In this document: positions 322-63,819 of the stretch, one piece after another
Layout of the letters: each line of letters begins with the position of its first letter
How positions within the stretch are numbered: the stretch's first letter is position 1
Assembly (NCBI RefSeq): GCF_006345805.1
Contig: NC_043012.1
Location: 16,430,001-16,494,000 of the forward strand
From: Octopus sinensis
Taxonomy: Eukaryota
Direction of reading: 5' to 3'
DNA: 64,000 nucleotides
The notes under the pieces: model-generated
Databases searched by the model: none
Seen by the model: only the letters and a program-made list of their open reading frames with translations
Told to the model about the DNA's origin: nothing
Made by a program: the position numbers and the translations under genes

Positions 322-1316
322 CCTTGAGCGACTTCAACACAACCAAAGCATTCTATAGGGGATTAGTGTCGGGGAGGTACGATGACGAGCTCGGGGCGAA
401 CCTGGGCGTCGACGAGGAATACTTGACCCGCCTGTTCAGGACGACTTTCGGGCCAGGACCTATGGACAACTTCCAGAGATCCCTGGCCTGGCAGTGCTAC
501 CGAGAAGCGCTACCCGTTCGGGATAAGCTCTACAGACACGGCTCGAGAAACGCGGGGCCGACCTGCCCGAGATGCGGTCAGAGCGACGAAACCGTTCTGC
601 ACGCACACGTGCAGTGTCCAACCATTTCCGACTAGTGGGCTTATGTCGAACGACTGCTGTCACGTGTGGGACGAATCGGTTTATCAGCCGAGTCTATCGT
701 CAATATCGCCACACCTCCTTCCTTCAAACGGGAAGAAAGAACTATTTTCATCATACTTGTGGCTATGGTGAAAGAATGTATCTGGTGGACGCCTCTGAAA
801 GGATTAGAGACAAACACTTTCATCTCTGGTTAATCTCTCATCAACTTCTTCAAGTGTCACTTGAAAAGGAAAGTGAGAGTAGAGAGGCAAGTTTTGTCTA
901 GCGAATGTTTCAAAAAAAGATGGGTGAATGTAGCAAGGATGGCACGTATGAATGACGAAGCCACCTTGAGCACAATCCTATGAACCCGGAAAAATTTTAA
1001 ATAGAGAGTTTCTTACTTGCAAATAAATGTGTTAACATATGACATTGATGACCGAGGTTACCGAGGTCTTTTTCGTAGGCTTTTCTTTCCACGGATAAAC
1101 CTTATCTGCTTCCCCCTTTACATCATGACATTTCTGTAATACACGATCCCTATTGGTCGTTATTTTTCTTTTATCCTTTCTTATTTTCCCTTTTTTTTTC
1201 TTTTTACTATCCCTTTTGATCGAAAACCTACCCCACTTTTTTTCTCCTCAAAAAGAAAAGCTCTACTTTGTAATTTATCCCGTCTGTGTTCAGCCCTGTG
1301 TGGCTAATAAAGAAAC
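322..1316 (+). mobile_element. 5'-truncated, decayed Tx1/L1-clade LINE (ORF2 C-terminus with zf-RVT, plus 3' UTR)
   Basis: DNFQRSLAWQCYREALPVRDKL..PTCPRCGQSDETVLHAHVQCP aligns with DNFQKSLTWQCYRGALPVWDKL..PTCPRCGGDRETVPHAIVQCP of the 53360-56764 ORF. The frame continues through in-frame stops to ~983. It ends TGTGTTCAGCCCTGTGTGGCTAATAAAGAAA, like the tail of the full-length element, followed by (TATC)n. Confidence 0.9.
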
Positions 1317-25219: not shown

Positions 25220-25831
25220 AAAAAATTAAAAAGATTATGATGATGATGATGATGACGACGATGATTATTATTATGATAATGACAACGACGATGATTATGA
25301 TGATGATGAGGAGGAGGAGGAGGATGCATCATGAGAGTGAGAAAGAAAAAGAAAAGAAAGTACGAGGATCTTTTGAGTCAGCACAAAATAAAATCTTTTA
25401 CATCTTTTGTTGTGGCAAATAAGGGTAGCTTGGGTGTGTGTGTACATATATATACATACGTATATATACGTATATATATATATACGTATATATATATATT
25501 CGTATATATATACGTATATATATATCTACGTATATATATATATATACGTATATATATATACGTATATATATATGTATATATATACGTATGTATATATATG
25601 TACACACACACCCAAGCTACCCTTATTTGCCACAACAAAAGATGTAAAAGATTTTATTTTGTGCTGACTCAAAATATCCTCGTACTTTCTTTTCTTTTTC
25701 CTTCTCACTCTCATGATGCATCCTCCTCCTCCTCATCATCATCATCATCATAATCATCGTCGTTGTCATTATCATAATAATAATCATCGTCGTCATCATC
25801 ATCATCATCATCATAATCTTTTTCATTTTTT
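25220..25831. repeat. ~610-bp near-perfect inverted repeat centred on a (TA)n/TACG microsatellite
   Basis: 25220-25460 is the reverse complement of ~25585-25831; mirror-image ORFs appear on both strands. Confidence 0.95.
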
Positions 25832-29057: not shown

Positions 29058-29765
29058 GATTGGACAGTTGATCGAATTTGCACTAGCAGACAGTTGATCG
29101 CATTTGCACTAGTGGACAGTTCATCGAATTTGCACTAGTGATGAGTTGATCGAATTCACGCTTGTGGACAGTTCATCGAATTTTCACTAGCGGACAGTAG
29201 TCGAATTTGTGCTTGAGGACAGTTGATCAAATTTGCGTTTGTGGACAGTTGATCGAACTTGCGTTAATGGACAGTTGATCAAATTTGCACCAGTGGACAT
29301 TGCACGTGTGGACAGCTGATAGGATATGCGTAAGTGGACAATTGATAGGATTTGCGCTTGTGGAGAGTTGATCGAATTTGTGCATGTGGACAGTTAATCG
29401 AATTTGCGCTTGTAGACAGTTAATCAAATTTGCACCAGTGGACATTGCACTAGTGGAGAGTTGATCGAATTTGCGCTTGTGGACAGTTAATCGAATTTGC
29501 ACTTGTGGACAGTTAATCGAATTTGCGTTTGTGGTCAGTTGATCGAATTTGCGCTAGAGGAGAGTTGATCAAATTTTAACTGGTGGAGAGTTGATAGAAT
29601 TTGCACTAATGGACAGTTGATTGAATTTGAGCTTGCAGACAGTTGCTCGAATATGCGCTCGTGCACAGTTGATCAAATTTGCACTAGCGGACAGTTGATC
29701 AAATTTGCGCTACTGGACAGTTGATCGAATTTTCCATAAGCGCAAATTCGATCAACTGTCCACAA
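29058..29765 (+). repeat. 26-bp satellite array, block 1 (AGTGGACAGTTGATCGAATTTGCGCT consensus); orientation flips at ~29737
   Basis: Tandem 26-mers directly visible; the last unit is inverted (GCGCAAATTCGATCAACTGTCCAC). Confidence 0.95.
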
Positions 29766-30554
29766 GCACTAATTCACAAGTACTGAATTCATACTATAGC
29801 GCAAGGTTTGTAATTTTGAGGGAGATAGGAGCAGGTTGATTGTATCGATCTCAGTACGTTATTGGTGGTTATTTTATTGAAACTCGAAAGGATGAAAAGC
29901 AAAGTGGACTGGGCTGAAATTTGAACTGAAAATTTGCTAGAGTAAATTAGATGTACAGTCCGTAAGAGTATAATGAAACTTTTAATAATTCTGCTTGATT
30001 CTCCGTTACTTAGTCCGTCCGTAACACATCCATGTGATTAGTTCTAGGAGAGAGGGGGAGAGCTGTGAAGGAATTGGGAGGGGTTGTGGTGAGTGAAATG
30101 CGTAAAGTTTTAAAACTAAGTTTATCTTCCGTTACTTAGCCCGCCTGTAACGCTTTCACGTGATTAGTTGAAAGGAAAGGCGAAGAGCGAAAGAAAAAGG
30201 ACAGATAAGAAGTGGATAAGTTGAAGAATGAGAGAGAAAGAGGGAGAGTGCTGTGTATTATGACTATAAAATTGTGCATAAAGTACACAAAGTGTATATA
30301 TAGAGTATATTTAAAGTGATTATAAAGTATATGAAGTGTATATATAAAGTGCATTAAGTAATTATGGTATTCCAGTTTCCTTCACTTCCCAATGTGTTGC
30401 AGATGAGTACCTATCATTCCATACAGACACAACGCAGATTATTGTTTCAGGTTTTTTCGATAAAGTTTTCAGAAATTGCCCAATATGTTTGCCATTAATA
30501 GTGTGAAATATTTACGGGCCCCGCTAATCAATAATAAATTGTTGGCAAAGGTGA

Positions 30555-33897: not shown

Positions 33898-36800
33898 CGG
33901 CAAATTCGCCACAGGTGTAAATTCGATCAAGTGTCCACTAGAGAAAATTCGATCAACTGTCGTCTGATGCAAATTCGATCTAATTTCCACTAAAGCAAAT
34001 TCGATCAAGTGTCCACTGGAGTAAATTCGATCAACTCTCCACTGGCGTAAATTCGATCAACTGCACACAGGTGTAAATTCGATTAAGAGTCAACGGGTGT
34101 AAATTCGATCACCTGTCCACTTGTGCATATTCGATCAAATGTGCACTAGCGAATTGATCGAATTTACACTAGTGGACAGTTGGTCGAATTTCCGCTAGTG
34201 GACAGTTGATCGAATTTGCACTAGTGGACAGTTGATCGAATTTTCACTAGTGGACAGTTGATCGAATTTAAGCTAGTGGACAGTTGATGGAATTTGCATT
34301 AGTAAACACTTGATCGAATTTTCGCAAGTGGACAATTGATAGAATTTTCACTAGTGGACAATTGATCGAATTTACATCAGGGGACAATTGATCGAATTTA
34401 CACCAGTGGACAGTTGATCGAATTTTTGCTAGTGGACAGTAGATCGAATTTTCGCTACTGGACAATTGATCTAATTTACACCAGTGGACAGTTGATCGAA
34501 ATTCCGCTAGTGGACAGTTGATCGAATTTGCACTAGTGGACAGTTGATTGAATTTTCACTAGTGGACAGTTGATCGAATTTACACAAGTGGACAATTGAT
34601 CAAATTTACACCAGTGGACAGTTGGTGGAATTTGCAGAAGTGAACAATTGATCGAATCTACACCGGTGAAAAGTTTATCGAATTTGCGCTAGTGGACAGT
34701 AGATGGAATTTTCGCTAGTTGACAGTTGATCGAATTTGCGCTAGTGGACAGTTGATCGAATTTTCACTAGTGGACAGTTGATCGAATTTACACCAGTGGA
34801 CAGTTGATCGAATTTTTGCTATTGGACAGTTGATCGAATTTACACAAGTGGACAGTTGATCGAATTTACACCAGTAGACAGTTGATCGAATTTTCGCTAG
34901 TGGGCAGATGATCGAATTTTAGCTAGTGGACAGTTCATGGAATTTGCACTAGTGGACAGTTGATAGAATTTGGACAAGAGAACAATTGATCAAATTTAAA
35001 ACAGTGGACAGTTGATCGAATTTGCCCTTGTGGACAGTTGATCGTATTTGCGAGAGTGGACAGGTGATCGAATTTTCACTTGTAAACAGTTGATAGAATT
35101 TTCGCTAGTGGACAGTTAATAGAATTTGCACTTGGGGACAGTTGATCGAATTTTCGCAAGTTGATCGAATTTTCACTAATGAATAGTTGATTGAATTTGC
35201 GCTAGTAGACAGTTAATCGACAGTTAATCGAATTTTCATTAGTGGACAGTTGATTGAATTAACACCAGTGAACAGTTGATCGAATTTTCGCTAGTGGACA
35301 GTTGACCGAATTTTAGCTTGCGTACAATTGATCGAATTTACACCAGTGGACAGTTGATCGAATTTTCGCAAATGGAGAGTTGAACGAATTTGCACAAGTA
35401 GACAATTGATCGAATATACACCAGTAGACAGTTGATCGAATTCACACAAGTGGACAATTGATCGAATTTACACAAGTGGACAATTGATCGAATTTACACC
35501 AGTGGACACTTGAGCGAATTTGCGCCGGTGGACAGTTGATCGAATTTACACAAGTGGACAGTTGATCGAATTTTCACTAGGGGACAGTTGATCGAATTTA
35601 CAGAATTGGACAGTTGATCGAATTTACACAAGTGGACAGTTGATCGAAATTTTCGCTAGTGGACAGTTGATCGAATTTTCCCTGGTGGACAGTTGATTGA
35701 ATTTTCCCTGGTGGACAGTAGCTCGAATTTACACAGGTGGACAATTGATCAAATTTACACCAGTGGACAGTTGACCGAATTTTCTCTAGTGGACAGTTGA
35801 TCGAATTTTCACCAGTGGACAGTTGATCGAATTTTCCCTAGTGGACAGTTGATCGAATTTACACCAGTGAACAGTTGATCGAATTTGCGCTAGTGGACAG
35901 TTGATCGAATTTACACAAGTGGACAGTTAATCGAATTTTCCCTGGTGGACAGTTGATCGAATTTACAACAGTAGACAGTTGATCGACTTTTCGCTAGTGG
36001 ATAATTGATCGAATTTACATCGATGGACAGTTGATCGAATTTGCGCTAGCGGACAGTTAATCGAATTTGCGCTAGTGGACAGTTGATCGAATTTTCATAA
36101 GTGGAGAGTTGATCGAATTTCCACCAGTGGACAGTTGATCGAATTTTCGCAAGTGGACAGTTGAACGAATTTGCACAAGTAGACAATTGATCGAATATAC
36201 ACCAGTGGACAATTGATCGAATTTACACTGGTGGACAGTTGATCAAATTTTAGCTAGTGGACAGTTGATCGATTTTGCGCTAGTGGACAGTTGATCGAAT
36301 TGACACTAGTGGACATTTGATCGAATTTACCCCAGTTGACAGTTGATCGAATTTTCGCTAGTGGACAGTTGATCAAAATTTACACCAATGGAATTTTCAG
36401 AAATGGACAGTTGATCGAATTTACACCAGTGGTCAGTTGATCGAATTTTCGCTAGTGGACAGTTGATCGAATTTACACCAGTGGACAGTTGATCGAATTT
36501 GCGCTAGTGGACTGTTGATCGAATTTACACAAGTGGACAGTTGATCGAATTTTCCCTGGTGGACAGTTGATCGAATTCACAGCAGTGGACAGTTGATCGA
36601 ATTTGCGCTAGTGGACAGTTGATCGAATTTACACCTGTGGACAGTTGATCGAATTTGCGCTAGTTGACAGCTGATCGAATTTTAACTAGTGGACACTTGA
36701 TCGAATTTTCGCAAGTGGGCAGTTTATCCAATATGCACAAGTGGACACTTGATCGAATTTACATCAGGGGACAGTTTATCGAATTTTCAATAGGGGAAAG

Positions 36801-45900: not shown

Positions 45901-46197
45901 ATATATACACACACACACACACGGCGGGTTTCTTTCAGTTTCCATCTACCAAATCCACTCACAAGGCTTTGGTGGGTCCGAGGCCACAGCAGAAGACACT
46001 TGTTCATGGTGCCAGACAGTGGGACTGAACGCGGAACCATGTGGTTGGGAAGCAAGCTTTTTGCAACATTTATTTATTTATTTATCTATTTATTTATTTG
46101 TTTGTTTGTTCTTTTTTTTTTGTTTGTTTGTTTCATTAATTCCGTGTGTGTGTGTGTGTGCATACCCGTCTATCTATCAACATATACAAGATATAAA

Positions 46198-46571
46198 GGC
46201 GGCGAGCTGGCAGAAACGTTAGCACGCCGGGCGAAATGCTTAGCAGTATTTCGTCTGCCGTTACGTTCTGAGTTCAAATTCCGCCGAGCTCGACTTTGCC
46301 TTTCATCCGTTTGGGGTCGATTAAATAAGTACCAGTTACGCACTGGGGTCGATATAATCGACTTAATCCCTTTGTCTGTCCTTGTTTGTCCCCTCAATGT
46401 TTAGCCCCTTGTGGGTAATAAAGAAATAGGTATTTCGTCTGCCGCTACGTTCTGAGTTCAAATTCCGCCGAGCTCGACTTTGCCCTTCATCCTTTCGGGG
46501 TCGATTAAATAAGTACCAGTTACGCACTGGGGTCGATATAATCGACTAAATCCGTTTGTCTGTCCTTGTTT
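46198..46571 (+). mobile_element. Tx1-tailed SINE: head plus two 184-bp-period body units
   Basis: Head GGCGGCGAGCTGGCAGAAACGTTAGC, B box GAGTTCAAATTCC, tail GCCCCTTGTGGGTAATAAAGAAATAG joined directly to GTATTTCGTCTGCCG (46246 and 46430). Confidence 0.9.
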
Positions 46572-52944: not shown

Positions 52945-53113
52945 ATTTCTTTACTGCCCACAAGGGGCTAAACATAGAGGGGACAAACGGATTAAGTCGA
53001 TTACATCGATCTCAGTACGAAACTGATACTTTATTTGTCGACCCCGAAAGGATGAAAGGCAAAGTCGACCTCGGCGGAATTTGAACTCAGAACGTAACGA
53101 CAGACGAAATACG
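52945..53113 (-). mobile_element. 3' body of the SINE split by the Tx1 LINE
   Basis: Reverse complement of the 46246-46428 and 59950-60132 body, starting at CGTATTTCGTCTG. Confidence 0.9.
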
Positions 53114-53359
53114 AATTTCTTTATTGCCCACCGGGGGCCAAACATAGATATGGACAGTACAACTGATGGGATCAGTGAATCGATATGATTTTACATAAAT
53201 GTGACATCAAAAATAAAATACAATACATAAAAATCGAATGGAATACACAGTACAAAAACAATACAAATGAAGCGATGATCAAGTTACGCTCCGATCCCAC
53301 AAGCCCCGATCTACCGCTGATACCTTTTTATTTTTCCTTTTTTTTTTTTCCTCGTCTAT

Positions 53360-56300
53360 TCACACGGTTCCTTGCACGCACAACACTCGTGCAACATACT
53401 TCCATCTCTTTTGGAACGTACACTCTGACAGACACCTCTTCTCCAGCCACAGTTTCCTTTTCAAATGAAAAGAAAAAAAGGATCGTAAATTGTCACCAGA
53501 GATAAAGTTGCCTGTCTTAATTCCTTTTATCCTAGTATTCCATACAGCCTCTTTTGCTATTGCTACAACCGTGAGAAAACAATTCTTACCTTCGTTCGTT
53601 AGAACTCCCGGTGGGTCAATTTTTATAATTGACTCAGTCGACAGCCGTACTCTTCCTTCGCCGGACAACAGATGTTCAGCATAAGCCCACATTTCAGTTA
53701 TCTCCGGACACTGAACAATAGCGTGAGGGACGGTTTCCCTGTCCCCACCGCATCTTGGACAGGTCGGCGACTGACGTTTACCATGTCTTGCGAGCTTATC
53801 CCAAACGGGCAAGGCACCTCTGTAGCATTGCCAGGTTAAGGACTTTTGGAAGTTGTCCAACGTTCTCAACCCGAATGTACGATGAAACAAGCTGTCCAGT
53901 TGAATAAATCCGAGACCTAGAGTCGACCCCAGGCCATCGTCGCATTCAGACTCTACCAACCCACTATATAAAATCCGTGTGGAACCCCCACCGCTGGCGT
54001 TGCCCGAGCGCCGGAACAGCAAGAGGGCCTTACGGCACTCTTTATGCCACTCACTCGACCTCGGTCTACGAGAACACCAGGCTTCCTGTTCGCAAAAACT
54101 CTTGAACTCAGGGAACATTTGTCTGGCCAGCTGAGACCACACCCGTTCACTATCCAGGAGAATCCAGAGGTGCCTCAACCTCAACGCATGTCTGCGCATC
54201 ATTAACCAAGGCATCCCTAAACCTCCATTTAAAGGCTTTTGACAGCAGACAGAGCGTTTCACAAGTGGCGACCTGCCCTTCCACAAAAAGCGAAAGAGCT
54301 GTCTCTCCAACCTGATCAACCACGAATCCGGACAGGGCACGACAGTCAGGCGGTAGGTAATGACCGATGCGATAAACACATTGGCCACTTCCGCCCTCCC
54401 TTTCAGGGATAGCCACCGCCAAGACCAAGTCTTGACTACTGCAGCCACCCTGCTCAATACCTCCGTCCAGTTCTTCTCTATCTGGAGGCCTGGTCCAAAC
54501 CAGACTCCCAGCAACTTAACCGGTCCCTCCGTCCAGCGCCTAACAACACTGTCTGAAGGCATCGACTTGCCAACCCAGGTGCCGAGCTGCAAGCCGACCG
54601 ACTTTTCCCGGTTAATCTTTGCTCCTGCTACCTCCTCGTAAGCCTCAATAGTCTTACCTACTTCACGTAGGCGTACCACTGTGGTTACACTGATAGTGAT
54701 ATCATCCGCGAAAGCCGTAACAAACTCCTCTAGTCCTGGTTCTCTCGGGATGCCACTCAACCTTTGCAGTAATGGCTCGAGAGCCATCACATACAAAAGT
54801 GGTGAAAGCGGACATCCTTGACGAACCGAGCGTCTGATGCAGAACGGCTTCGAAAGGAAACCGTTCACCCGAACTATCGAGTCAATGTTGTGGTACAAAG
54901 CGATAAACCACCTGAGGAAGCCAAGGCCCAGGCCAAACCGCGCAAGTACAGTCGCTAGGTATCGATGGTCAACCCTATCAAAAGCTTTAGACTGGTCCAA
55001 ATGCACCAATGCCCCACCTTTGCCAGATTTATTACCAAACCTCTCTATGGTATAGCGAATAAGATGGAGGGTATCCTGAATGGTTCTGCCTGGGATGGCA
55101 CATGTCTGTGCCTCCCCGACTATACCATTCGCGACACGCGCCAACCTTTTTGCTAGAACCTTGGCCAAAATCTTCACTTCTGCGTTTAACAGAGTGATGG
55201 GCCTGAAATTCTCTAGAACGTCCCCCTTGTCCGGGTCCTTTCTGACCAACGTCACTACTCCCCGGCGCACAGATCTGGGGATAAACCCATTCTGTTTCCA
55301 GTTCGCGTACACGTCAGTCAGTAGTTGCCCGAACAAGTCTGGCATACATTTATACAGCTCGTACGGAAGACCATCAAGTCCCGGTGACTTACCCGCTTTA
55401 CAATCGGCCAAAGCCTCCATCACCTCCTCAAGTGTGATTGGCCCTTCGCAAGACTCCGCATCCGACCCCGAGAGGCACGGCAGCCCGGTAAGAAAGTCCT
55501 CGAGGGCTCTCCCACCACCAGGACCGCCGTCACCCCCGAACAGCTGGGCGAAGTACTCCCGAAAGACCTCACACATTTTCTCGGGTTCGTTTATCAAGAC
55601 ACCATTTTGATTCGTCAAAGACCGAATAGAGGAACTATTTCCTTGCCGAGCTTCCACCACTCGGGCCCATCCAGCGGCTTTGATTCCTTCACTTCCCATT
55701 GCACGTAACTTAGCTCTGGTAATACTTCCCATGTGGTGGGCTTCAAGATGCTGGTTTAACTCCAGTCTTTTCACCCTCGCTTGGTCTGTATTACCAGTCC
55801 TCCAGGCTTCTTCTAGTTCCTTAACTAGACCATCTCCTATTTTACGTCCCTTCTTAGCTAAACTTATGCTAAACCTAATAGACTCATATTTGATGGCTCT
55901 TTTTAGGGCGTACCACCATTTGTTATTAATGATGGTACCTGTTAATGCCCTCTGTATTAACATCTTGATCCGCTTTCTGTACTCCTCAATCGCCAAAAGG
56001 GACGTATTGAGTTTCCAGTAGCCAGATCCCTGTCTATGCAACTTATCTACCGTCAGTTTACAGGTAACCATCTTGTGGTCACTGTAGCTGACTAGAAAAA
56101 ACTGTGGACACTCAACTATGGACTTATCTTTTTCTCTAATTAAAATCCTATCTAGATATGTTCTGGTAGACCCGTCACTATTTGACCACGTCCACTGTGG
56201 AGTGTTCGGGTGCTCCAACCTATATGGATCTGCTAGCTGAAATTGACTTAGCAGATCCCGAAAGCCTGTGTTACATTTTCTGTTCATGTTCGAGTTTGAG

Positions 56301-56764
56301 CCAACACAATCTGTGTGTGCTGCACATATTGTATTAGAGTCTCCTAACACTACTAGTGAATGCGACGTGGCTAGGAACTTTCCTAGGCCACGAAAATATT
56401 CAGTTTGCGGGCCAATAATGTTTGGTGCATAAATAGCGACCAGCCTGATTGTCTTGCCACAACTGAATGTCAAGTCGAGAACGACCAGCCTGCCTTCTGG
56501 GTCAGAAAAAACCAACTTTTTCTCGGCTACCCGGTTTCTTTTTAGTAGGACCAACACCCCACCCCCACCTCCCGCCCGACTCGGAGAAACGTACTTCTCG
56601 TAGCCGTTCAGGAGGGGGAGCAGATCTCTTGGCCCCTTCACCCGGGTTTCCGTTGCAACAATTACATCCAAATTTCTCGACCTGATGTCATTCAGAAAGC
56701 GTCCTTGCTTCCAGCTTGACAACAGGCCATGAACATTTAAACAACCAATGTGAATAGCCATCAC
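53360..56764 (-). CDS. ORF2: APE endonuclease + reverse transcriptase + C-terminal zf-RVT, 1134 aa, uninterrupted
   Basis: APE: CLNVHGL, ATET, AIYAP, LGDSN, YLDRI, SDH. RT: KSPGLDGLP, FRPITLLN, LDQSKAFDRVDH, RQGCPLSPLLY, FADD. Zinc finger: CPRC..ETVPHAIVQC. Confidence 0.95.
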   Translation of the reverse strand: MMAIHIGCLNVHGLLSSWKQGRFLNDIRSRNLDVIVATETRVKGPRDLLPLLNGYEKYVSPSRAGGGGGVLVLLKRNRVAEKKLVFSDPEGRLVVLDLTFSCGKTIRLVAIYAPNIIGPQTEYFRGLGKFLATSHSLVVLGDSNTICAAHTDCVGSNSNMNRKCNTGFRDLLSQFQLADPYRLEHPNTPQWTWSNSDGSTRTYLDRILIREKDKSIVECPQFFLVSYSDHKMVTCKLTVDKLHRQGSGYWKLNTSLLAIEEYRKRIKMLIQRALTGTIINNKWWYALKRAIKYESIRFSISLAKKGRKIGDGLVKELEEAWRTGNTDQARVKRLELNQHLEAHHMGSITRAKLRAMGSEGIKAAGWARVVEARQGNSSSIRSLTNQNGVLINEPEKMCEVFREYFAQLFGGDGGPGGGRALEDFLTGLPCLSGSDAESCEGPITLEEVMEALADCKAGKSPGLDGLPYELYKCMPDLFGQLLTDVYANWKQNGFIPRSVRRGVVTLVRKDPDKGDVLENFRPITLLNAEVKILAKVLAKRLARVANGIVGEAQTCAIPGRTIQDTLHLIRYTIERFGNKSGKGGALVHLDQSKAFDRVDHRYLATVLARFGLGLGFLRWFIALYHNIDSIVRVNGFLSKPFCIRRSVRQGCPLSPLLYVMALEPLLQRLSGIPREPGLEEFVTAFADDITISVTTVVRLREVGKTIEAYEEVAGAKINREKSVGLQLGTWVGKSMPSDSVVRRWTEGPVKLLGVWFGPGLQIEKNWTEVLSRVAAVVKTWSWRWLSLKGRAEVANVFIASVITYRLTVVPCPDSWLIRLERQLFRFLWKGRSPLVKRSVCCQKPLNGGLGMPWLMMRRHALRLRHLWILLDSERVWSQLARQMFPEFKSFCEQEAWCSRRPRSSEWHKECRKALLLFRRSGNASGGGSTRILYSGLVESECDDGLGSTLGLGFIQLDSLFHRTFGLRTLDNFQKSLTWQCYRGALPVWDKLARHGKRQSPTCPRCGGDRETVPHAIVQCPEITEMWAYAEHLLSGEGRVRLSTESIIKIDPPGVLTNEGKNCFLTVVAIAKEAVWNTRIKGIKTGNFISGDNLRSFFSFHLKRKLWLEKRCLSECTFQKRWKYVARVLCVQGTV

Positions 56765-56772
56765 TTACCTGT

Positions 56773-58329
56773 TTAATTAGGATTGTCCGGTGGAGGGGGA
56801 CCCTCCACCTTTTTTTTATCCAGGGTCGGAGGTGGACGGTCTTGGGAAATAGATTTGTCAAAATCCCGTCTCACCACCGACACAGAATTATCAGGTGGAG
56901 GGGGAATCTCCACCTTTTCCTTTTCTCGCGGGATCGGAGCTGGTAATCCATGAAATATCGACTTGTTAAAATCTAATCTCAATGAAGATACAGTCTTTCT
57001 GTACTTATTTTGTAGAATTCTATAAGTCTTATTTGAGACTTCATATATGTCGTAATTGATAAATTCCTCTGAAAGGTTATCAATTTTTTTTTACAGTCTT
57101 TATGAGTTGAATGTCTCTCATGAGCTCAGTATCTTTAGTGTATACGGCTATTATGCCTTTTTCTTCTTTTTCTCTTCTGGCAGTCTTTTTTGGTCGTTGT
57201 TCTGTAGTAGTCGCCGCTCTCGGCTGGGTTGCTGGTTGTATTTTTCTTTTGTTTGTTGTTTTTTTCTCATCTGTTTCTTCTTTATCTTCTTCCTCTTTGT
57301 CTTTTTTCTCCTCTTCCTCCTCTTCTTCATTTTCCTTGCAGTTCCTTCGAATGTGGCCTAATTGACCACATAAAAAACATCGAGGTTTTCGGCCCTCAAC
57401 AAACACCACGAGGTTCTCCTCCCCTACCTCAATTGTCTCAGGAATTGTTTGAATTATTTTAGGGTCCGCTTGAATGAGAAGATTAATTGTTTTACCATCC
57501 CAGCGTGGGTTTTCCGTAGCGGTAGCCTGGAGGAGAGTAATTTTTTCTACCTCTTTGATTAGGACTGCCGCCAACAACCACATAGGTTCGACCTCTGGCG
57601 GGACCCTTGTAATTTTTATTCGCGACGTCCTCATCCCCATATAATAGGGTATTAACTCCACGTCGTTCGTTTTCAACGTTTCCACTGAGTTCTTGTGTGC
57701 TATTTCTTTATTGGTGAACCTTACTTCCACCGTTCCGAATTTTTTCCTCTTCTCAGAAATACTACGTCGCCCAATATTGGCTTTAAGCACTTTTCTATTT
57801 TCTCTTCTGACATTCTTTCAATTTTTCTATTTTGTAGACAATATGTTTTGAAAATTATTGTTTTTTGCTTTTCTTCCTGTAATAACTTTTGCGGAGGTTC
57901 AATTTTCACACTGTTGTCATTTATTTCCATCATTTTGCTGTATTTCATAATTTCGCTTTTATTCGTCGACAGTATCTGGGTTCCACCCCCAGCAGCCAAC
58001 GCAAAACTTTTTTTTCCATTTTTTGGTTCTATCTGGATGCTAGGCACATCAATTATTCTCTTCGACACAATGCCTTTGTTCTCTGGCAAAGTCGGAAACT
58101 CTTCTGGTGAAAGTTCTGACGAGCTCTCAGACACATCTCCAAAAATATCAAATATATTATCCTCTCTGCTATTCCTTCTTGTAGCGGGGGAAACCCCTAT
58201 TTCCTTGTCTGTAGTTGGCTCCTCGCCGGACATGTATTTCCTCCTCTCAACAGGAGAAACAAGTATTTCTGCTCCAACGGTAGGCTCCATGCTAGACGAC
58301 ATTCTTCCCTCCAAAGGGGGAATGAACAA
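56773..58329 (-). CDS. ORF1: gag-like protein with zinc knuckle, split by two single-base indels in A-homopolymers (~57745, ~57085)
   Basis: ORFs 57721-58329, 57080-57790 and 56773-56982 join as FLRRGK/KFGTVEVRF and KTVKK/IDNLSEEF..LRLDFNK; knuckle CFLCGQLGHIRRNC. Confidence 0.8.
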
Positions 58330-58465
58330 CGCGTGCTACCACAAGCACTAAGTGTTTTCATTGAAAACTCCAACAGTTAAGTTATTCAACAGTTTAACAA
58401 GAAACAACAGTTGTTAACAATATTAACACCACGAAACAGCAATTCTTACTTCACGAACACATGTG

Positions 58466-58528
58466 CGGCAGACGAAATACGGCTACGCATTCCGCCCGGC
58501 GTGCTAACCACTCTGCCAGCTCGCCGCC
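58466..58528 (-). mobile_element. 5' head of the SINE split by the Tx1 LINE
   Basis: Minus strand GGCGGCGAGCTGGCAGAGTGGTTAGCACGCCGGGCGGAATGCGTAGCCGTATTTCGTCTGCCG matches the heads at 46198 and 59903. Confidence 0.9.
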
Positions 58529-59574
58529 TAATATATATATATATATATATAATATCGGGAATTATCGCATACCGTATTATTTCAATATAATCTATTCTGG
58601 TTTATAGATGAAAAGTGCCGCCCCTCCAAAAGTGCCCTAACCCTAACCCCTACCTCTCCCTTAGCTATTCTTGTGTGCTAGGGGTATCTGTAGAGGCTTA
58701 ATTATCCGTATAATACTCTCTTCAAACCTATTGAAAAGTTTCTTATTTCTTTCAATTCTCCCATGTCAGATAAAATGCTAACACAAAAAATGAAAAGACA
58801 CGCAGTGAAAATTATGAGGAAACAAAGTCAGTAGGGAGGAGGGCAAAACTGTATAGATATGTCAACTGGTGTCTGTACAAGATTTCACTAAAAAATACCC
58901 AGTTTTCTGCAAGTTATGAGGTAACAAAGGCGACTCGTGTGAATTTTAAAAAACTTTTCTCTCTCTCCACCTTCGCCACATCAGGAAAACGTCCCACTTT
59001 AAATTCTGATATAAATGGAACGTATACCATCAGAAGCATATCTGTTGAAAATTTCAAGTTAAAGAATCCATTTTTCCGAAAGTTATGAGGAAACAAAGTC
59101 GATAGGAACACACTTGTGTCCGTATGCCCGGTGGTACATGATCTATAGAATTTATTCTTTTATTCCTTGAAGCGTTTCAGCCCAAAGATTGTGGCCATGC
59201 AGGAGCATCGCCGGTAAAAGTAGGCGATGGGTGCATATGCATATTTCGGGAATACTTGCACTTTCTTCAGTACCACATGGAACCCAGAAAAATATATTTA
59301 ACATAATTTCTTTGTTCGCTGTGTTCCGGACTAAAATATATTTACGAATTAAAGCGGGAGTATAACTTGGGACTCGTGCAAATACAAGCGCACATACACA
59401 GACATACACAAAAGCACACACAAGCGTACACACAAACACACACATAAGCTCGCATACACATACACGAACACACTCTAACACATGCACGCAAACACATACG
59501 CACTGATACATAAATAAAGAAGAGCACACACAAGTACACATGTACACACAAACATACACATACACAAGCATATA

Positions 59575-59850: not shown

Positions 59851-59902
59851 CACAACACACAGACACACACACTGTGTATGTTTTCAAAAATAATTTCTGT
59901 TA

Positions 59903-60135
59903 GGCGGCGAGCTGGCAGAAACGTTAGCACGCCGGGCGAAATGCTTAGCGGTATTGCGTCTGTCGTTGCGTTCTGAGTTCAAATTCCGCCGAGGTCGACT
60001 TTGCCTTTCATCCTTTCGGGGTCGATAAATTAAGTACCAGTTTCGCACTGGGGTCGATGTAATCTACTTAATCCCCTTGTCTGTCCTTGTTTGTCCCCGC
60101 TATGTTTAGCCCCTTGTGGGCAGTAAAGAAATAAA
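59903..60135 (+). mobile_element. Full-length monomeric Tx1-tailed SINE with 12-bp TSD
   Basis: Complete head, body and tail; TSD AATTTCTGTTAG at 59892-59903 and 60136-60147. Confidence 0.9.
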
Positions 60136-63334: not shown

Positions 63335-63819
63335 CTTTAGGCACAAGGCCTTGAAAATTTTGGAAGGAAGAGGGCTAGTCGATTACATCGACTCCAGTGC
63401 GTAACTGGTACTTATTTTATCGACCCCGAAATGATGAAAAGCAAAGTCGACCTCGGTGGAATTTGAACTCAGAACGTAACGGTAGACGAAATACCTATTT
63501 CTTTACTACCCACAAGGGGCTAAACACAGAGAGGACAAACAAGGACAGACAAACGGATTAAGTCGATTATATCGACCCCATTGCGCAACTGGTACTTATT
63601 TTATCGACCCCGAAAGGATGAAAGGCAAAGTCGACCTCGGTGGAATTTGAACTCAGAACCTAACGGTAGACGAAATACCTATTTCTTTACCACCCACAAG
63701 GGGCTAAACACAGAGAGGACAAACAAGGACAGACAAACGGATTAAGTCGATTATATCGACCCCATTGCGCAACTGGTACTTATTTAATCGACCCCGAAAG
63801 GATGAAAGGCAAAGTGGAC
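63335..63819 (-). mobile_element. Tandem array of Tx1-targeted SINE bodies (184-bp period; three partial or complete units)
   Basis: GTAGACGAAATAC|CTATTTCTTTA junction at 63482 and 63666; the terminal unit has the alternative GGCCTTGTGCC tail. Confidence 0.9.

Follow-up and report, generated by a model that had tools for sequence, protein, structure and literature searches.

A Tx1-type LINE resident at a single site within the head of an octopus SINE, with a 3' tail shared by sister families that likely mobilise the SINE together

Retrotransposons of the Tx1 clade, which lack long terminal repeats (LTRs), are known to settle in repeated DNA, and the targets listed for them in the available part of the survey are DNA transposons, LTR elements, U2, 5S and microsatellites (PMC4494074). 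Among the target-specific members, Tx1L inserts into Tx1D, Keno into U2, Kibi and Koshi into microsatellites, and the crocodilian Tx1-Mar into Mariner-N4 (PMC4494074). Long and short interspersed nuclear elements (LINEs and SINEs) can also form stringent pairs, which are defined by common stem-loop tails (PMC3747384). For R1Bm, R2Ol and the I factor the end of the template RNA pairs with the nicked target DNA (PMC6007223), and in L1 priming four matched nucleotides suffice (PMC3649969). Here we describe a LINE, hereafter LINE A, that interrupts a SINE with a tRNA-like head in a stretch of 64,000 nucleotides from Octopus sinensis (NCBI RefSeq assembly GCF_006345805.1, contig NC_043012.1, positions 16,430,001 to 16,494,000), the whole of which is called the window. 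LINE A is a strictly SINE-targeting Tx1-type LINE, and the SINE is likely mobilised by a group of sister LINE families between them, not by LINE A alone.

In the window LINE A divides its host SINE into a head (58528-58466) and a body (53113-52945), with 16-nt copies of the target site, near-identical to each other, on both sides. The insertion point, site 1, lies between the A-box-like and B-box-like motifs of the host. The parts are:

53114..58465, minus strand: full-length Tx1-type non-LTR retrotransposon, family A (LINE A), 5.35 kb
53360..56764, minus strand: open reading frame 2 (ORF2) of LINE A, 1134 aa, open, with apurinic/apyrimidinic endonuclease (APE), reverse transcriptase (RT) and zf-RVT
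57080..58335, minus strand: ORF1 of LINE A, with zinc knuckle, split over two frames in the window copy
53115..53147, minus strand: 3' tail of LINE A, common to the SINE and sister LINE families
53126..53138, minus strand: hairpin with a 4-bp stem and a 5-nt loop, directly before AATAAAGAAAT
53098..53113, minus strand: 3' copy of the target site (site 1), the start of the host SINE 3' half
58466..58481, minus strand: 5' copy of the target site
58466..58528, minus strand: host SINE 5' half, the tRNA-like head, with an A-box-like motif at 58508-58518 that holds site 2
52945..53113, minus strand: host SINE 3' half, with a B-box-like motif at 53076-53088, the body, and the tail at 52945-52977

The ORF2 domains match PF03372, PF00078 and PF13966, and the ORF1 zinc knuckle matches PF00098. 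LINE A is assigned to the Tx1 type from this anatomy, the ORF2 tree holding elements of the O. sinensis genome alone. It resembles the target-specific Tx1 clade in its APE-RT ORF2, its zinc-knuckle ORF1 and its strict insertion into a multicopy repeat; it differs in that its target is a SINE head, which is absent from the Tx1 target lists in the available text, and in that two families here occupy two sites of one such head (PMC4494074). The window copy shows a one-base difference at 57739 and another at 57084 from all four public sequencing runs compared, so that the break in ORF1 is likely particular to this copy or to the assembly. Those four runs cover 30 of 30 bins of positions 53000-58700, and their contigs are uninformative on expression; near-identical sequence occurs in public runs under seven organism labels, and no RNA runs are listed among those matching this interval. 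Between ORF1 and ORF2, at 56779-56981, a segment of about 100 nt is tandemly duplicated with 72% similarity, and (TA)n stands on either side of the host's 3' half.

Genome-wide counts refer to a genome of 2.72 Gb, in which the 37-nt tail pattern of LINE A has 115 exact copies. All 30 top-scoring LINE A loci, the window copy among them, are at site 1 of the SINE, as is every one of the 40 loci drawn from the exact tails irrespective of flank, so the preliminary description was right, at 70 of 70 loci, that this SINE is the target. Thirty-seven of the 40 reach the 5' end, two are truncated and one is interrupted by another element. None of the 70, truncated copies included, occupies a dispersed GGTA site, and an older copy of 90.6% identity (L340) is likewise at site 1. 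Non-A LINEs at this site were not found among the 7 loci without the A pattern in the 30 examined (of 212 matches); these seven were six SINE variants and one older A copy.

The duplicated target site itself is informative. In all 35 LINE A copies with a scorable 5' junction (five were dropped), base 1 of the duplication is concordant on both sides. Departures of the 3' copy at duplication positions 8-16 are shared with the 5' copy in just 2 of 34 cases, and the 5' letter at position 14 follows LINE A lineage (12/15 versus 4/17, p=0.004; permutation p=0.0005). Taken together, base-1 concordance and a position 14 that tracks the lineage indicate that a copy of the target is likely present at the 5' end of LINE A RNA. 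The 5' site copy at 58466..58481 would then owe its first base to the host and its later bases largely to the donor LINE, and such a target copy could account for the high share of full-length copies. Of 34 aligned LINE A copies, 22 lie in C-type hosts. In one sub-lineage the hosts are C-type throughout (15/15 versus 7/19 in the rest, p=1.4e-4), and this sub-lineage has no shared substitution in the endonuclease columns.

The tail of LINE A reads at 53147-53115 as first quoted, and it is common to the SINE, with a GCCC..GGGC stem in both. The quoted SINE string is matched by the tails at 52945-52977 and 60100-60132; the copy at 46395-46427 departs from it, reading CAA.. and ..GGGTAAT. The window has two more SINE tails, at 63497-63529 and 63681-63713. 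The LINE and SINE tails differ at 4 of 33 nt and have a GCCC/GGGY hairpin; aligned over 34 nt they are 88% identical, with E=3.7e-07 for the window. Six tail matches occur in the window, against 0.00 expected from 100 shuffles. The stem is present in the minimum free energy structures of both tails, which score no better than shuffles (z of +0.24 and -0.36); over all tails tested z runs from +0.24 to -2.57. In 16 of 16 tails, which are not independent, a short stem is followed by A(A/G)TAAAGAAA. The stem has 3-4 Watson-Crick pairs at the same place in each, a count equalled by 0-33% of control windows, and its letters vary among families (GCCC/GGGY, AGCC/GGCT, ACCT/AGGT, GATT/AATC), each stem alone being weak against controls. 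Stringent pairs likewise have a short stem-loop in a shared 3' tail, and, as in them, the stem letters here vary by family while pairing may be kept; they differ in that no one-to-one partner exists here: many families with different targets carry the tail (PMC3747384).

The tail had been taken for LINE A's own. It is in fact common to many Tx1-type families, namely B, D, E, F, G, H and I, and to the ORF1-only family C. The same families dispose of the idea that the 33-nt match is not LINE sequence but belongs to an older SINE at the junction or is left over from it. The LINE A tail does adjoin SINE sequence, yet its diagnostic bases are fixed in 70 of 70 copies, and sister LINEs inserted at non-SINE sites have homologous tails, which leaves this origin with almost no probability. 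Family B copies mostly end in (ATCT)n.

Which family comes nearest to the SINE was read from 48 unselected SINE tails in 604 kb (54 ten-kb stretches, 6 of them adjoining the window, plus the window), found with a search motif free of the loop bases that tell the families apart. The mean number of differences across the 15-nt hairpin is 1.06 for E (L187), 2.92 for C and G, 4.19 for A and 4.71 for B. A closed pair of LINE A and SINE had been proposed, and a better-matching LINE family was fixed beforehand as the finding that would speak against it. Family E is such a family, lying nearer than A to the SINE hairpin in 47 of the 48 tails, which makes a closed two-party loop unlikely. The shared tail keeps its value as a sign that a Tx1-type LINE mobilises the SINE, and loses it as a sign that A is the sole partner. 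In the ORF2 tree E is the nearest relative of A (71% identity, FastTree support 0.91). Its flanks matched the SINE in none of the 27 tested (one mis-anchored and some duplicates among them; three loci were unanchored). Median pairwise distances are 1.0% for A, 4.8% for E, 10.6% for B and 9.3% for the SINE, with E and B taken from best-scoring copies.

Family F (L192, about 2200-2250) has about 29 nt in common with the SINE just upstream of a hairpin that is different, a combination that suggests tail shuffling among families. Half-L1 elements (HAL1) are ORF1-only elements. Family C is comparable in consisting of ORF1 and tail alone; unlike HAL1, it forms 1.75-kb tandem arrays, often at site 2 of the SINE. 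It is a young element of 471 aa (L144:460-1875, at G000:C6 near 70.55 Mb, and L131-L155), its ORF1 is 39% identical to that of LINE A over 135 aa, it carries the shared tail, and its arrays have a period of about 1750 bp, the terminal copies often being at site 2. Tandem arrays of full and truncated copies are seen in several Tx1-type families (L110, G000:C9:76.60-76.62 Mb and other zf-RVT matches).

The SINE is about 232 nt long and has 74,836 exact tails genome-wide. Its A- and B-box-like motifs were judged by eye against the box consensus, ARAGORN and Rfam searches for a tRNA or Rfam family in it gave none, and 24 of the 42 copies with a head show a target duplication. Counted with a shorter tail pattern, the SINE tails that lead into site 1 in the register of LINE A number 28,313, and LINE A itself was found at one inner SINE-SINE junction of this kind (L047). 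To this extent new SINE copies can become LINE targets, as proposed; most arrays, however, end in non-SINE DNA without A. By automated classes 33 of the 48 unselected tails end in this way, two of them being probably decayed tandems, and the several end classes include one B-type (ATCT)n end. With about 115 exact LINE A tails against about 75,000 exact SINE tails, landing sites are not limiting, and A fills well under 1% of them. Of 75 SINE-SINE junctions 71 have G as the junction base; C or T accounts for 625 of about 28,000, and the 100 matches listed divide into about 46 with C and 54 with T. A search for nested SINE heads found none. A hammerhead-type retrozyme origin of the 184-nt units was considered and set aside, no core motif being seen by eye.

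SINE-SINE junctions also form at site 2, a position that autonomous G elements (L309, L314) occupy, as do 6 of 10 terminal C copies. At G000:C6:45.20-45.217 Mb (L063, L131, L309) site 2 contains both a G LINE and a C array, and site 1 contains LINE A, all within one apparent SINE head. SINE arrays of bivalves are alike in having a single head followed by repeated units; here the unit boundary is an exact LINE target site and the arrays are far commoner (PMC11481361). SINEU and Tx1-Mar offer another parallel, in that a SINE and Tx1 LINEs with a common target preference were taken as evidence of mobilisation. There the common target is a third element, and here it is the SINE itself, with a visibly shared tail (PMC4494074).

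Subfamily typing of 167 arrays and monomers from selected and unselected loci links landing site to SINE subfamily. Inner units at site 1 are GGGT-tailed in 120 of 126 typed, and terminal units comprise 13 GGGT and 15 GGGC (inner versus terminal, p=5e-9). Dispersed ends that begin with GGT belong to the GGGT subfamily in 26 of 26 cases, AGA ends are GGGC in 10 of 13, and site-2 junctions are GGGC in 8 of 11. The upstream duplication also begins with GGT in 7 of 11 head-bearing GGT-ended copies (one near, three unresolved), which makes GGT genuine target letters; pure read-through from master multimers was dropped for this reason as the origin of terminal TAGGTA ends. Three unrelated targets are occupied by G elements with 3-8 endonuclease differences in about 200-234 residues. 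Between the G-type L298, L299 and L305 on one side and L304, L314, L303 and L315 on the other, near-identical endonucleases go with different repeats and different 5' untranslated regions. In these patterns landing sites track the subfamily's own downstream flank rather than endonuclease sequence, which suggests that pairing by read-through RNA helps in target choice.

LINE A resides at one SINE-head site and its tail is shared by sister families, among which E is the closest match to the SINE hairpin; we regard it as fairly probable that these families mobilise the SINE together. In mechanistic terms, ORF2 would bind the hairpin and reverse transcription would begin about 11 nt downstream. 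The transcript would extend into the flank, a few bases of which would pair with the nicked target, and copies would thereby tend toward sequences resembling the donor's flank. SINEs already at site 1 or site 2 would become self-targeting, giving rise to arrays and to dispersed insertions starting with GGTA or AGAAAC. The endonuclease, along with target copies at both RNA ends, would hold LINE A at site 1. The first site-1 junctions were probably made by an A-lineage enzyme; present-day A would be mainly a SINE resident, each insertion splitting its host's promoter boxes. In R1Bm, R2Ol, the I factor and L1, pairing assists at a target set by the endonuclease; here it may transmit the target's identity from a donor to its daughter copies (PMC6007223, PMC3649969). 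A wider proposition, possible but doubtful, is that throughout this Tx1 group the target is inherited via RNA flanks that pair with nicked DNA, that near-identical endonucleases thus keep different homes, and that a self-targeting SINE seeds sites for at least two resident LINE families in a SINE-centred community of LINE, ORF1-only and SINE parasites.

The loop might instead close at the level of the lineage: an ancestral A-lineage ORF2 cutting before GGTA would have mainly mobilised the GGGT SINE subfamily, multiplying its own targets in SINEs and at dispersed GGTA sites. The identical registers of SINE-SINE and LINE-SINE junctions in 28,313 cases fit this, as do inner units of one subfamily within mixed hosts, GGT-starting duplications at dispersed sites, and the location of L340 at site 1 with a loop one base nearer that of the SINE. 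The absence of A from dispersed GGTA sites at all 70 loci does not fit, and A's tail is among the poorest matches to the SINE. The base preceding dispersed GGT sites is mostly T, where A's site has C. Junction letters pull both ways: A sits in C-type hosts in 22 of 34 copies, yet C junctions make up about 1% of SINE junctions, like T, and occur in 0 of 15 C-headed arrays, while a weak excess of C junctions in C-headed arrays (5/8 versus 3/14, p=0.08) favours the lineage loop. As an exclusion of A the C/G junction test was withdrawn, since host type tracks LINE lineage; it is only partial evidence against A, weakened further if RNA pairing selects host type. On balance a lineage-level loop seems unlikely. 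Still less likely is a history in which a few ancestral SINE-in-SINE events produced master multimers that were expanded by unequal crossover between duplications and dispersed by an unspecific LINE, with target choice driven purely by the endonuclease and A a passenger. The predominance of G at junctions, the homogeneity of some arrays (L173) and the failure to find nested heads would agree with it, and recombination between duplications has been proposed for bivalve SINE arrays (PMC11481361). It leaves unexplained why the dispersed insertions of each subfamily begin with that subfamily's own junction letters and why near-identical endonucleases sit in different targets, and the subfamily difference between inner and terminal units also counts against it.

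Several points weigh against mobilisation by sister families with flank-guided targeting. The family survey covers 30 of 150 scored zf-RVT loci and 20 further elements, from 24,041 candidates. Over 45 nt it is family F, not E, that is nearest to the SINE tail, with A second worst, and the true partner of the SINE may therefore be unsampled or extinct. E is low in copy number, with at most 184 exact tails, SINE variants mixed in. The A lineage reaches about 9% divergence (L340), which overlaps SINE ages, and the register of site-1 junctions is that of A's cut. The ORF2 held responsible for moving the SINE is deduced from sequence. An N/G difference in one endonuclease loop tracks AGAAA versus G-starting targets in G-type elements, so few endonuclease changes could still switch targets. 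Terminal units are GGGC in 15 of 28 cases versus 21 of 74 monomers (p=0.02), and a few chimeric master dimers may produce part of the subfamily contrast. Finally, the C-host bias of the A sub-lineage could mirror host availability over time.

The window holds further pieces of these elements:

46197..46560, plus strand: SINE with a tandem second unit beginning at site 1
59901..60132, plus strand: monomeric SINE at a non-SINE site, duplication of about 14 bp
63377..63819, minus strand: headless SINE tandem array with two site-1 junctions
327..1315, plus strand: 3' fragment of sister Tx1-type family B, same tail layout, then (ATCT)n

A large array of a 26-nt satellite occupies 29338-29845 and 33900 to about 39700, with an inverted block near 33900-34150. 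An inverted repeat at 25222-25823, with 291-nt arms that are 89% complementary and a 20-nt spacer, is a possible miniature inverted-repeat transposable element (MITE) or foldback element.

A description of a SINE-targeting Tx1 element or of LINE A was not found in the literature, a scope outside which lie Repbase, Dfam, subscription papers and supplements, where the SINE or the LINE may already be named; the available portions of PMC13282606, PMC4758252, PMC5804259 and PMC5786205 do not describe the system. With LINE A, the SINE head joins the known safe-harbour targets of Tx1-type LINEs, and a shared tail alone proves insufficient to name the partner LINE. The octopus genome offers a natural series: elements with intact ORF2s of about 70% identity and a common tail layout have different targets, and so do near-identical endonucleases. 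This series makes it testable how far protein and how far RNA-DNA pairing determine the target choice of APE-type LINEs, a question relevant to retargeting such LINEs as insertion tools.
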